Origin: Chlamydia trachomatis
GTDB taxonomy: Bacteria; Chlamydiota; Chlamydiia; Chlamydiales; 2-12-FULL-49-11
Direction: 5' to 3'
DNA length: 24,000 bases
Assembly: GCA_945870925.1 (NCBI GenBank)
Contig: CAMBTZ010000001.1
Span: 6,448-30,447 of the forward strand
The notes beneath the pieces are model-generated. The model saw nothing but the letters and a program-made list of their open reading frames with translations, ran no database searches and was not told where the DNA came from. The translations under genes were made by a program, and so were the position numbers. Below, piece by piece: positions 3,517-6,566 of this stretch. Numbering within the stretch: position 1 is the stretch's first letter; every line of letters starts with the position of its first letter.

Positions 3517-4409
3517 ATATACTCCCTTTTGTAACGATACTTATTTTAGTGATCTCCCTTACAATCTCCTCTTTTTTTGGAGGGTATAAGGAAAGTTCCT
3601 ATGCAAAAATTGGATCTACAGGCCTGATTAGCGCCTTTCGTCTGGCTAGAAATTCCGCTGAAGAGACAAGACTTCTTAATTATGCGAAAACTCTAACACC
3701 CGAAACACAAGAAACAGCTGAAAAACCTGAAAAGCCTGAAAAAAAGCAAGCCCCACCAAAAGTTCGAAAAAATAGAGAGAAATCATTTAGAGAAAATATT
3801 ACAGAAAACTCTAAATTCAATCTTGCTCCTCTTTTAAAGGAAGATGATCCCTTTCTTGAAGATGTATTCACTAAACTTCTAATTGAGATCTATCAAAACA
3901 CCGATCTGGCTATTGATTATAAATATGATAAAAAAGAACTTCCAAAACTTCTTGTTAAGGAAATTTTGCTATCTGCAAGAAAGGGATCCTTTGCCGAACC
4001 GATTGAATTTGAAATGATCGTCCTTCCAAATAAAGGTCTCCACGAGATTTGGTATAAAATGCTAAAAGGTTCCCCTAACTACCCAGACAAGGCGAGCTGG
4101 CCCCCTATCTCAAGATTTGTCATCCTAAAAGAGATTAAGGACAAAAAAGTAGTAGCTGCAAAAAAAGCCTCCATCCCCCTCCTTAAAGCCTTCTTCGGTA
4201 ACGACATCACAACTGCTATACTTGAAAAAGAAAAAGAAGGAGTACTCACAAAAACCGAAATGGACACCTTCCTTGAAACTCTTGGCGTCGATCCCATCAA
4301 AAAAAACTACCTCCACTACGGCTATAGCAAAAAACTCCGCCGCACCGAATCAGAAAAGGACCCCACCACCGGCATCACCGCTACCCTCTCCTACTCCACC
4401 CAAAAATAG
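3513..4409 (+). CDS. Membrane-anchored hypothetical protein, translationally coupled to the pseudopilin-like gene (possible minor-pseudopilin/GspK-like role)
   Basis: 298 aa. There is an N-terminal TM helix (MNILPFVTILILVISLTISSFF) without Glu+5, then a charged low-complexity stretch (AEKPEKPEKKQAPPK). It has a 4-nt overlap with the upstream gene. The 3' third switches to C-ending codons. Confidence 0.55.
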   Translation: MNILPFVTILILVISLTISSFFGGYKESSYAKIGSTGLISAFRLARNSAEETRLLNYAKTLTPETQETAEKPEKPEKKQAPPKVRKNREKSFRENITENSKFNLAPLLKEDDPFLEDVFTKLLIEIYQNTDLAIDYKYDKKELPKLLVKEILLSARKGSFAEPIEFEMIVLPNKGLHEIWYKMLKGSPNYPDKASWPPISRFVILKEIKDKKVVAAKKASIPLLKAFFGNDITTAILEKEKEGVLTKTEMDTFLETLGVDPIKKNYLHYGYSKKLRRTESEKDPTTGITATLSYSTQK

Positions 4410-4478
4410 AGGGTCAGACCTGCAAGGTTGCAAGTTAACACTTCAAACTTGCAACCTTGCAGGTCTGACCCTCTATTT
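4404..4478. repeat. Palindromic hairpin element, copy 1 (65-bp core 4409-4473; flanks extend the arms to 33 bp); probable bidirectional terminator between convergent genes
   Basis: GAGGGTCAGACCTGCAAGGTTGCAAGTT, loop AACACTTCA, then AACTTGCAACCTTGCAGGTCTGACCCTC: perfect 28-bp arms. The flanking AAATA/TATTT extend pairing and contain both stop codons (TAG 4407-4409 on the plus strand, TAA 4479..4477 on the minus strand). On the minus strand the hairpin is followed by UAUUUUU. Confidence 0.9.
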
Positions 4479-5622
4479 AGCGGAGAAAGCTGATGTGAAA
4501 GGTGGTTCCAACTCCAGGAGTTGAGGTGACCCAGATTTTTGCGTCGTGTTTATCCATGATGATTTTAACAATGGAGAGGCCGATGCCGGCGCCGCCAAGT
4601 CTTCGCGAGTGAGTTTTGTCGACGGTGTAAAAACGATCAAAAATTCTTTCCCATGATTCTTCCGGAATGCCAACGCCTTTGTCTTCAATTTGAAGATAGA
4701 CCTCATCTTCCTTTGACTCAATGGTCACTTTAATTGCTGCCGGTTTATGCGAATATTTAACGCAATTTTTTAAAATATTAATGAATGCTAGGATAAGGAG
4801 GGTCTCTTCTCCAAGTACAATTATCTCATCTTGATTATAGAATTGCTCAATATGAGTTTCGGGGTGAATAGCCAAAATTTGCTGTGCCGCTTCATCAATA
4901 AGAGCAACAAGATCGCATGGAACAAGCGATAGAGGGCCGCTATTTTCTAAGTCAGCAAGTGTGAGTAAATTCTTTACAAGCCTCTCCATTCTTTCGCAAT
5001 TTCTAATAATTTTTTCAAGTATTGACTCATACATTCCTTCTGAAACTTCTTCTAAATCTTTTAAAGTCTCTGCAAATCCTCGAATAATAGTTAATGGAGT
5101 CCTAAGTTCATGCGATGCATTAGCAATAAATTCTTTGCCGACCTCTAGAATTTTTTGTTCATTTGAGCAATCTTTTAATAATAAAATCACCCCTTCTGCT
5201 TGTGGGATTGGAATTGCGATTAATTCAAAATGCATCTTTAAAAGTTCATTTAACACCACATGTGAATGAGCTCTCTCTTTTTCATTTAACACTCGTTCAA
5301 TTAATTTTTTTGATGGTAAAGCAAGATCTTTTACAAGCGCTCTATCAAGGTCGCGATACTCTTTACCTAAAATTTTATCCTGCGCTATTCCAAGTAATGA
5401 CAACGCTTTTGAATTAACACATGAAATCCTTCCAGCACCATCTACTGTCAGGGCCCCCTCTTGCAAGTTTTCTAAAAGGGCTCTTTTTTCAAGGCGCAAA
5501 AGATCTGCCCCCTTTCCAAAAAGGGCCGCACGATCTGCCATTTCAGTAAAATTTCTTCTAAGACTTACTATATAAAACAAGGCTGCAGCAAGGCAAACCA
5601 CTAAAATGTAGACAAATTCCAT
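4477..5622 (-). CDS. PAS-domain sensor histidine kinase (single N-terminal TM, cytoplasmic sensing)
   Basis: H-box ANASHELRTPLTIIRGF, N-box INILKNCVKYS, G1 EDKGVGIP and G2 GGAGIGLSIV are present. One N-terminal TM helix (MEFVYILVVCLAAALFYIV) is followed by a PAS-like segment (LQEGALTVDGAGRISCVNSKA). No response-regulator gene lies in the window. Confidence 0.9.
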   Translation of the reverse strand: MEFVYILVVCLAAALFYIVSLRRNFTEMADRAALFGKGADLLRLEKRALLENLQEGALTVDGAGRISCVNSKALSLLGIAQDKILGKEYRDLDRALVKDLALPSKKLIERVLNEKERAHSHVVLNELLKMHFELIAIPIPQAEGVILLLKDCSNEQKILEVGKEFIANASHELRTPLTIIRGFAETLKDLEEVSEGMYESILEKIIRNCERMERLVKNLLTLADLENSGPLSLVPCDLVALIDEAAQQILAIHPETHIEQFYNQDEIIVLGEETLLILAFINILKNCVKYSHKPAAIKVTIESKEDEVYLQIEDKGVGIPEESWERIFDRFYTVDKTHSRRLGGAGIGLSIVKIIMDKHDAKIWVTSTPGVGTTFHISFLR

Positions 5623-5660
5623 AGCTCATTATTGTACCAAACCTATATAAACTTTGGTAT

Positions 5661-6527
5661 ATGCATCATATTTTTAATACAAATTTTGAATGGGAACTTG
5701 AAAAAGATCTTAATGTAGACCTAGAACACTCATTTTCTAAGATCCATAAAAAATTTCTATCACTTGGCAATCTTTTTGCTAAATCGGGTGATACCGTATT
5801 CCCCGAAAAACCTCTTGCCGGTCAGATAATTAATTCGTGGGCCCCTTCAAGACTAATTCAAGAATATGCAAAAAAGCACAACCTTTTATACTCAATTCCT
5901 CCATGGGAAACTATTAAAAAAATTGCATCGAAGGAATTTGCTCACACCCTTTCCCCCCTTCCTAATTCGCGCATCTTACATACTTTGGAAGAATTAAATG
6001 AGTGGTTAAAAAAAGTTCCTGAACCTTATGTTTTCAAATCATTTTACGGCTTTTCAGGAACAGGACATAAGTTTCGCAGCACAAACCTTACCTTTCCTGT
6101 CCTTGCTGAACCTTGGGTCACAAGATCATTTGATTTCAGCTCTCAATGGGAAATTAAAAATGGACAAATGAACTATCTTGGCGCCACAATACTTAGATCT
6201 AATGAACGCGGCGCATACAAAGAGACTCTAGCTGCTCGCAATGAAGTGCAACTATTCGGCTCAAATTACCACTACTTACAAGAACAAATCGCCTTCATCA
6301 AAAGCCACACCCACTCCTTTTCTCCATTCTTCGGAAACCTCGGCATTGACGCCTTTGTCTATAACAACACACTGCAACCCATCTGCGAAGTGAACGCCCG
6401 CAAAACCTTTGGCTACCTTGCTCTCCATCTCCTCACAAAGCACCCTGAAAAAACCTCTTTCACTCTCTCATTCGACAAAGAAAAGGGCCTCACTTTTGAG
6501 GGTCAGACCTGCAAGGTTGCAAGTTGA
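5661..6527 (+). CDS. ATP-grasp-fold protein (function unknown)
   Basis: The layout fits the ATP-grasp fold: ...PYVFKSFYGFSGTGHK (K...G-rich loop), ...AEPWVTRSFDFS..., ...GNLGIDAFVY...LQPICEVNARKTFGY (E-x-N-x-R end). The last nine codons plus the stop (EGQTCKVAS*) are encoded by repeat copy 2. Confidence 0.5.
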   Translation: MHHIFNTNFEWELEKDLNVDLEHSFSKIHKKFLSLGNLFAKSGDTVFPEKPLAGQIINSWAPSRLIQEYAKKHNLLYSIPPWETIKKIASKEFAHTLSPLPNSRILHTLEELNEWLKKVPEPYVFKSFYGFSGTGHKFRSTNLTFPVLAEPWVTRSFDFSSQWEIKNGQMNYLGATILRSNERGAYKETLAARNEVQLFGSNYHYLQEQIAFIKSHTHSFSPFFGNLGIDAFVYNNTLQPICEVNARKTFGYLALHLLTKHPEKTSFTLSFDKEKGLTFEGQTCKVAS

Positions 6528-6566
6528 CACTTCAAACTTGCAACCTTGCAGGTCTGACCCTCAAAA
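6494..6566. repeat. Palindromic hairpin element, copy 2 (65-bp core 6498-6562), same orientation as copy 1
   Basis: The core is identical to copy 1 except for the first loop base (G at 6526 versus A at 4437). The flanking TTTT/AAAA extend the stem. No U-tract follows on either strand. It lies between the co-directional ATP-grasp gene and murA. Confidence 0.9.

Follow-up and report, generated by a model that had tools for sequence, protein, structure and literature searches.

Two near-identical perfect hairpins at gene ends of a chlamydial contig: candidate copies of a small palindromic insertion element

Two near-identical hairpins in one chlamydial locus

Why does the same 65-bp hairpin stand twice, 2.1 kb apart, at the ends of a sensor kinase gene and an ATP-grasp-fold gene in a chlamydial genome? 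The locus lies in a 24,000-nucleotide stretch of contig CAMBTZ010000001.1 (assembly GCA_945870925.1, positions 6,448 to 30,447; hereafter the window). A preliminary description of the window had taken the hairpins for REP/MITE-like dispersed elements, with possible roles as terminators, RNA-stabilising 3' hairpins or recombination sites. The evidence given below somewhat favours a small non-autonomous palindromic insertion element, similar to REPINs or MITEs, of which both hairpins would be copies.

A repeat finder returned one 65-nt family with two members that are 98% (64/65) identical, which reproduces the cores at 4409-4473 and 6498-6562 and their perfect 28-bp arms as first described. Each core is composed of 28-nt fully complementary arms and a 9-nt loop, and the sole difference between the copies is the first loop base, A at 4437 and G at 6526. 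Because the loop is asymmetric (AACACTTCA vs GACACTTCA), both copies can be seen to face the same way, in line with the earlier claim. The dyad motifs GGTCAGACC and TGCAAGGTTGCA are present in each arm. Arm probes of 18 and 15 nt, allowing up to three mismatches, matched the four arms alone (shuffle expectation 0.02 and 0.15, respectively), and the statement that nothing else in the 24 kb resembles the hairpins holds. Folding, a check proposed in the preliminary description, gave z-scores of -14 to -18 against shuffled sequence, irrespective of RNA or DNA parameters. We then joined L009, the window, and L103, which together cover 37,920 of the 38,979 bp of the source contig. No further arm-like sequence with up to eight mismatches per 28 nt was found in the window or in these 37.9 kb. 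The copy count, likewise proposed as a check on the whole genome, is therefore exactly two within 37,920 bp, with no third copy there.

The source is a MEGAHIT metagenome contig (38,979 bp; ENA ERZ27280276, k141_464172), and palindromes at contig ends can be artefacts. For example, a perfect palindrome with 105-bp arms at the very end of a metagenome-assembled genome (MAG) contig from NCBI (L011, 5857-6070) looks like a fold-back of assembly, with no relation to the element. For the two hairpins, an artefact of assembly or library is nevertheless barely credible, as both are internal to the 39-kb contig and are seen again with two assemblers. Both junctions are found unchanged to the base in another two ENA assemblies and the Logan assembly of a public run (L002, L018, L020, and L021), where contigs often end within the hairpin, as expected of a repeated palindrome. 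Overall, the junctions were seen in five assemblies. Moreover, the recurring hairpins carry a natural single-nucleotide polymorphism (SNP). Over about 4 kb compared between samples, only two SNPs were found, one at 6525 (L018 position 38) and one at 6604 (L002); the population is almost clonal. The SNP at 6525 is located at the tip of the copy 2 hairpin and converts a stop codon to Gly. With the G allele (protein P0019), the open reading frame (ORF) gains 10 codons into the right arm and encodes 298 aa with the tail EGQTCKVASGHFKLATLQV. Hence, the element is real and slightly polymorphic.

Comparison with relatives lacking the hairpins

The loci of relatives were reached via homologues of the ATP-grasp-fold protein (76-35% identity). 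The nearest genomes are Chlamydiae MAGs, apparently from freshwater lakes according to their isolate names (RH-23may17, K_DeepCast). Members of the MurA cluster gave no relative closer than L003, MurA being highly conserved. The gene order in L003/L022, L011, and L014 is a 179-aa gene, a gene of about 298 aa on the plus strand, the kinase gene on the minus strand, and the ATP-grasp-like gene and murA on the plus strand. This order is kept, free of hairpins, in relatives with 76-67% identity. In the loci fetched from related Chlamydiae, we found no 65-bp hairpin, no GGTCWGACC motif, and no comparable long hairpin.

We then inspected the two junctions. At the first one, the ~298-aa gene and the kinase gene of L003 and L011 converge with their stop codons overlapping by 4 nt (TTAA, CTAA). 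The conserved anchor codons on both sides (…TCC TAC / GAT GTG…) are 32 nt apart in L003 and L011, and 32 + 65 nt apart in the window. Removal of 4409-4473 yields …CAA AAA TAT ATT TAG with a 4-nt stop overlap, TTAG. At the second junction, the anchors are the GGN CTN codons and the murA leader GTATA…TTGAAATTTTT, which contains a TATAAT box; they are 18 nt apart in L011 and 18 + 65 nt apart in the window. Removal of 6498-6562 restores an open frame ending …GLTFKNEDVYN* (AAT TGA). The expected empty-site junctions are CCACCCAAAAATATATTTAGCGGAG and GGCCTCACTTTTAAAAATGAGGATG, respectively. Because deletion restores the anchor spacing of the relatives at both junctions, each event is a gain of exactly 65 bp, with neither target-site duplication nor loss of flank. 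The same comparison shows that the element entered the lineage after its split from the nearest sampled relatives. The insertions are also recent: the copies agree at 64/65 positions, whereas the flanking genes have diverged far from those of the relatives.

Both insertions are at A-tract/T-tract junctions at gene 3' ends. The REP/MITE-like proposal is thus borne out as regards insertion: the element is absent at both sites in relatives, and removal of 65 bp restores the ancestral gene ends. The preliminary description had further stated that the hairpins exactly delimit the gene pair. A copy does stand at both ends, but the final 30 nt of ORF 5661..6527 lie within copy 2 and comprise the tail EGQTCKVAS and the TGA stop (6525-6527). 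In the ATP-grasp-like frame, loop variant A gives TAA and loop variant G gives TGA. In contrast, homologues of the ATP-grasp-fold protein terminate …GL(T/I)xx without such a tail, whose residues 282-288 are predicted to be disordered (predicted local distance difference test, pLDDT, below 50). As for the murA -10 box, its former -35 region is now element sequence.

The synteny also bears on the suggestion that two direct copies make the enclosed genes a deletable or invertible module, that is, that the hairpins are recombination sites bracketing a mobile kinase/ATP-grasp cassette. The 65-bp direct repeats around 2.1 kb would suit such a cassette, and so would the 2116-bp contig L018, which begins and finishes in hairpins. 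However, L018 simply breaks off within a repeat at both ends, as assemblies ordinarily do, its first base fits the chromosomal context of copy 2, and no deletion or circle junction was seen. Above all, the same gene pair has the same neighbours (the 298-aa gene and murA) in the hairpin-free L003, L011, and L014. This is the comparison that the preliminary description itself had proposed for the module, and the module reading fails because the enclosed genes are flanked identically in genomes without the element. As judged from gene order, the kinase and ATP-grasp-like genes are ancestral residents of the locus, and a cassette is highly improbable.

Several other kinds of site were considered and rejected. 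An integron attC site or cassette does not fit in that the stems are perfect, GTTAACA and GTTGACA misfit GTTRRRY, and the enclosed genes are ancestral. The attL/attR sites of an integrated element, a telomere-resolvase site, and Tn3-type or IS6-type inverted repeats were ruled out by synteny, absent defining motifs, or absent target duplications.

The palindromes extend into unique flanks

The palindromes exceed the lengths given in the preliminary description, by 5 nt on each side of copy 1 and by 10 nt on each side of copy 2, and these extra bases are unlike each other (Table 1). The left flank of copy 2, CCTCACTTTT, is conserved coding sequence (GLTF), and the right flank, AAAAATGAGG, is its reverse complement at 9/10 positions. 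For an arbitrary 65-bp segment of the window, the probability of flanks pairing over at least five consecutive bases is 0.0011-0.0015, and that of pairing at 9/10 or more positions is 4-8e-5. The joint chance of both flank palindromies is about 1e-7.

Two explanations come into question, one or the other. Either insertion is directed to the middle of short A/T-tract palindromes (pre-insertion sites AAATA^TATTT and CCTCACTTTT^AAAAATGAGG), in which case empty sites should already contain AAATATATTT and CCTCACTTTTAAAAATGAGG; or intra-hairpin template switching after insertion overwrote a few bases of one flank with the complement of the other, leaving the length unchanged. The closest relative (76% identity in the ATP-grasp-like protein) is too distant to decide between them. 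We lean towards template switching for four reasons. The left flank at junction 2 shares 7/10 bases with L011 and the right flank only 3/10; neither copy has an imperfect arm; variation was observed only in the loop or at the loop-proximal base; and to the right of the insertion at junction 1 there is a cluster of differences from both relatives, which also shifts the kinase stop by one codon. The shorter kinase end is also present in L013.

A candidate REPIN/MITE-like insertion element

On balance, we favour the view that two insertions of a small non-autonomous palindromic element, equally oriented and separated by 2.1 kb, account for the hairpins. The element would move in the form of a single-stranded hairpin that a trans-acting HUH/Y1 transposase (RAYT or IS200-like) excises and inserts; this enzyme may be encoded elsewhere in the genome or may since have been lost. 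After insertion, intra-hairpin template switching in replication would keep the arms perfect, and the same process would have copied a few flanking bases, lengthening each palindrome into the unique flank. The missing target-site duplication fits HUH single-strand transposition and speaks against MITEs of the DDE type. A DDE origin would make the hairpin a MITE of an insertion sequence that kept its 28-bp terminal inverted repeats, and two perfect terminal inverted repeats around a 9-nt remnant have the look of it. Yet neither site has a target-site duplication or a shared direct repeat, TA is found on both sides of copy 1 but not of copy 2, and no parent element with these ends was found in GTDB representatives, JGI metagenomes, or IMG/VR. 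We regard this origin as very unlikely.

Searches were made for further members of the family. The exact 22-mer of the arm had zero matches in GTDB representative genomes and JGI metagenomes, a result silent on genome copy number as the source assembly is in neither. In IMG/VR, a 16-mer from the arm gave 17 matches, roughly the chance number, none of which had an inverted partner or extended identity, and a gapped pattern of the inner stem gave zero. BLASTN returned only chance matches (E=7) from a phage collection and none from a plasmid collection. Rfam 15 gave only generic miRNA-precursor hairpins below the gathering threshold (best 45.6 bits vs 84). When all open frames of the element were joined end to end and searched at the protein level, no candidates were returned, but this search is weak, as it also missed P0001, which carries EGQTCKVAS. 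A literature search for the motif strings returned only unrelated primers and viral termini.

The outer 12 nt gave a different picture. In hairpin arrangement (GAGGGTCAGACC, 26-56 nt, GGTCTGACCCTC), they were found in 61 contigs of the JGI metagenomes, mostly from high-GC (guanine plus cytosine) soil and sediment, which we sorted by inspection into roughly 10-15 families of hairpin repeats based on the palindrome GGGTCWGACCC. One of these families ends GAGGG…CCCTC, exactly as the chlamydial element does. In L035 (4459-5330), repeats of the GAGGG…CCCTC type flank both sides of a PF01797 Y1_Tnp gene (E=7.7e-9), an arrangement resembling the REPtrons/TIRtrons known for REP-associated tyrosine transposases (RAYTs). 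Di Nocera et al. (2013; PMC3733652) reported the motif GGGGWSAS to be common to the inverted repeats on either side of RAYT-like "TIRYT" genes, and the element's AGGGTCAG matches it at 7/8 positions. In control scans of viral contigs, the real pattern and two composition-matched controls all gave zero, so that these scans have no power. We take the 12-mer and its Y1 link as a lead, not proof, pointing to a possible REPIN/RAYT-type mobilisation of single-strand hairpins (HUH).

Several observations weigh against this interpretation. The presence of a Y1/RAYT-like transposase had been suggested as a check, and on about 38 kb of the source contig we found neither a Y1 nor any other transposase. 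With two copies in 37.9 kb, neither dispersal nor a mobilising enzyme was observed. No 5' tetranucleotide is common to the two sites (…AATA^ vs …TTTT^), unlike the target choice of IS608-type elements. The shared 12-mer could be a coincidence, the family count being of the order of a roughly estimated background of unrelated hairpin families with a given GC-rich 12-mer in common; the interior of the element is unlike that of any 12-mer-sharing family; and the RAYT-linked family A has no flank palindromy. Typical REPINs, besides, have imperfect arms. The RNA effects described below are predictions from sequence.

The lack of a transposase on the contig is also in keeping with a spread that needs none. 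In that case, one hairpin would have arisen or arrived once and then been copied 2.1 kb away by template switching or ectopic gene conversion at the same fork, and the element would be a local structural accident rather than a mobile family. That the sole two copies in about 38 kb lie 2.1 kb apart in the same orientation accords with this, and the flank palindromy shows that hairpin-templated copying could act here. On the other hand, inspection of donor and recipient junctions gave no useful microhomology, the gain of exactly 65 bp without loss at both sites looks enzymatic, and clustering within 2.1 kb of 38 kb is only weakly unusual (~0.1). Such local copying seems unlikely to us, and the status of a structural accident that goes with it equally so.

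Other hairpin repeats came up in the metagenome contigs. Families of the GGGTCWGACCC type are common in the high-GC soil and sediment contigs (L025-L085). L042 has a 60-nt hairpin (4081-4190) with 28-bp perfect arms and the same 13-nt start as the element, but with an unrelated interior; it is partly tandem-duplicated. L064, a Trout Bog contig with a GC fraction of 0.51, has a 63-nt hairpin in two direct copies 3.4 kb apart (2722-2784 and 6132-6194). Its first 13 nt are those of the chlamydial element and its interior is unrelated, and its second copy directly adjoins an ORF at the 3' end; by eye only, this ORF looks like a transposase. L029, L045, L056, and L082 contain inverted arrays of tandem GGGGTCAGACC units.

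Possible roles at the gene ends

Copy 1 has an A-tract on its left and a T-tract on its right, such that its stem is followed by UAUUUUU on the minus (kinase) strand and by UAUUUA on the plus strand. On the sense strand of copy 2, the stem is followed by AAAAAUG without a U-tract. These U-tract assignments agree with the preliminary description, as does the conclusion drawn there that a pure terminator does not cover both copies, considering that copy 2 has no U-tract and that relatives manage both ends without a hairpin. A scan for consensus terminators calls neither copy, and no single role suits both.

Insertion would nonetheless have had effects at each junction. At junction 1, the 33-bp hairpin with its A and U tracts may part the formerly overlapping convergent genes, serving as a bidirectional terminator or insulator. 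At junction 2, the last seven residues of the ATP-grasp-fold protein would have been swapped for a nine-residue disordered tail, and the sequence upstream of the murA -10 box would have been displaced by one that offers the -35-like CTGACC, possibly giving a hybrid promoter. RNase III cleaves perfect duplexes in the size range of 28-38 bp, and cleavage of such duplexes in both transcripts is probable.

The hairpin might then be mainly a selected RNA or DNA signal, e.g. a terminator, an RNA-stabilising 3' hairpin, an RNase III site, or a protein-binding site. This would agree with the position of both copies at gene 3' ends, with the tracts on the two sides of copy 1 (including UAUUUUU on the kinase strand), with the dyad motifs in each arm, and with duplexes within the RNase III size range. 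Several findings are difficult to reconcile with it. The gene ends of relatives work without the hairpin, copy 2 lacks a U-tract on the sense strand and truncates a protein, the natural allele disrupts the innermost pair and extends the ORF, and a 28-bp stem, called by the terminator scan in neither copy, is far longer than an intrinsic terminator needs. Selection for a signal is thus an improbable main cause. Because the relatives lack both copies and the natural allele breaks the innermost pair, the putative RNA effects are treated as consequences of a selfish insertion and not as the reason for the element.

Relation to known systems and significance

As a sequence family, the element had not been recorded before, but it is of a known kind, and a well-documented though ordinary example of it. 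REPIN/RAYT systems are the closest in several respects: two short inverted units form a hairpin of a few tens of bp, target-site duplication is absent, and the repeats are located at gene ends, occasionally inside ORF termini. In addition, AGGGTCAG is near GGGGWSAS, and the terminal 12-mer is that of the Y1-flanking repeats in L035, though this match may be due to chance. The element differs in having perfect 28-bp arms, REPs being imperfect palindromes of 20-40 bp; it has no GTAG or CGTC tag; only two copies and no RAYT were found in the ~38 kb searched; its flanks continue the palindrome; and its interior is unrelated to any family retrieved.

A second parallel is the Rickettsia palindromic element (RPE) of Ogata and colleagues (2000), reportedly a selfish palindromic element of an obligate intracellular bacterium that can land in coding sequence and add a peptide to an intact protein. 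Compared by description only, our element is alike in being a palindromic element of an obligate intracellular bacterium that landed in coding sequence. In contrast to the RPEs, which are 100-150 bp, numerous, and usually in frame and internal, it is 65 bp long, a length not divisible by 3, and brings a stop codon that closes the ORF.

Correia elements (CREE) consist mostly of terminal inverted repeat, form mRNA hairpins cleaved by RNase III, and can make promoters or terminators beside genes. The Neisseria CREE and DDE-type MITEs thus resemble the element in being short and mostly terminal inverted repeat, but CREE duplicate a TA target, are 100-155 bp long, and have an IHF site, whereas the element has no duplication at either site. 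Among bidirectional intrinsic terminators, copy 1 would pass as a GC-containing hairpin with an A-tract and a T-tract exactly between two stops. However, its stem is 28-33 bp instead of the usual 5-15 bp, and the identical sequence is also present at a site without a U-tract and absent from the orthologous junctions. Finally, quasipalindrome mutagenesis by template switching, said to go back to a model by Ripley and to have been studied in E. coli by Lovett and colleagues, would account for the perfect arms, the variation at the loop tip, and the length-preserving conversion of flanks. It is a mutational process rather than an element family, and leaves the same 65 bp at two loci unexplained.

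The most interesting features of the element are its exact 65-bp insertions and its flank-extending palindromes. To our knowledge, small selfish palindromic elements have rarely been described in Chlamydiae, whose reduced and largely syntenic genomes make insertions easy to date and read. Both events can be reconstructed to the base, with two stop codons and one C-terminus rewritten at once. If confirmed genome-wide, the element would provide a clean natural system for target choice or remodelling of hairpin elements, and would show how such elements create terminators and promoters at gene ends. A broader proposal, which we consider doubtful, is that a cross-phylum class of hairpins with the GAGGGTCAGACC tag (a GGGGWSAS-type end and RAYT-like Y1 recognition) reaches Chlamydiae. 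Such hairpins would extend by copying host flanks, rewriting stop codons, C-terminal tails, and -35 regions, and might home to termination zones downstream of C-rich, G-poor (rut-like) 3' segments.

Neighbouring genes and sequence features

The gene content of the source contig is chlamydial, including murA, a TLC nucleotide transporter, DUF2709, and pseudopilin-like genes. The features around the two hairpins are listed in Table 1.

Table 1. Hairpins, genes, and associated sites at the locus (window coordinates)
Feature	Position	Strand	Structure	Remark
Copy 1, 65-bp core	4409..4473		arms 4409-4436 and 4446-4473, loop 4437-4445 (AACACTTCA)	between stop codons of convergent genes
Copy 2, 65-bp core	6498..6562		arms 6498-6525 and 6535-6562, loop 6526-6534 (GACACTTCA)	inside 3' end of ORF 5661..6527
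Extended palindrome, copy 1	4404..4478		33-nt arms, 100% complementary	flanks AAATA/TATTT pair
Extended palindrome, copy 2	6488..6572		38-nt arms, 97% complementary, one mismatch	flanks CCTCACTTTT/AAAAATGAGG
Polymorphic innermost arm base	6525	+		T->G in ERZ27280282; TGA stop lost
298-aa conserved hypothetical gene	3513..4409	+		TAG stop from flank TA plus G at the start of copy 1; relatives have one codon more
PAS/HisKA/HATPase_c sensor kinase gene	4477..5622	-		stop codon 3 nt from copy 1
288-aa ATP-grasp-fold protein gene	5661..6527	+		last 10 codons including stop from copy 2
Promoter-like site before murA (ATG 6608)	6554..6583	+	CTGACC-18 nt-TATAAT	10/12 match; scan overall not above chance

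The preliminary labels of the enclosed genes fit the data. PAS, HisKA, and HATPase_c domains were found in the sensor kinase. The 288-aa protein has no sequence match in Pfam or PDB; its structure, predicted from 14 homologues (pLDDT 83), is matched by Foldseek to PurK, PurT, and ATP-grasp ligases (E ~1e-9), and the ATP-grasp label holds at the level of the predicted fold. The -35-like CTGACC of the promoter-like site lies within the right arm of copy 2, and its TATAAT together with the downstream leader TATAATTGAAATTTTT is conserved in relatives. The murA leader with its TATAAT box is kept in all, including L003.

The spacing of the genes varies among the relatives. A gene of about 830 aa with a guanylate-cyclase domain is located between the kinase and ATP-grasp-like genes in L003 (7489-9984) and L013 (1196-3664). 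It is absent from the window (5623-5660), L011, and L014, where the kinase and ATP-grasp-like genes are divergent neighbours 22-38 nt apart. In L003, about 550 nt (10859-11408), including an ORF for a 100-aa membrane-protein-like product, separate the ATP-grasp-like gene from murA. The corresponding distance is about 20-45 nt, hairpin aside, in the window (6563-6607), L011, and L014.

Patches of C-ending codons, 100-300 nt long, occur in the 3' parts of five genes, namely the OPT transporter (200-554), the 298-aa gene (4150-4409), the kinase (4477-4620, minus-strand gene), the ATP-grasp-like gene (6260-6500), and murA (7580-7880). Among 25 third positions, C occurs 12-23 times and G 0-2 times in these patches, while elsewhere C occurs about 3-5 times; the sense strand of the patches is strongly C-rich and G-poor. 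They resemble Rho-utilisation (rut) regions by composition, and the rho gene is present in the window (21147-22676). The hairpins were considered as a mutational cause of the patches, and this was rejected, as the same patches are present in the hairpin-free L003, L011, and L013. In these three relatives (66-76% identity), they are found in the OPT, kinase, ATP-grasp-like, and murA genes, and they are absent in the more distant L014. Because they are kept in relatives without hairpins, the patches predate the element. The 3' end of the OPT transporter gene also contains a C-rich imperfect repeat (404-525) with four copies of a 35-nt unit (e.g. CATCATCGCCCTCCTCACCGTCCTCG), whose starts are 9, 69, and 9 nt apart.

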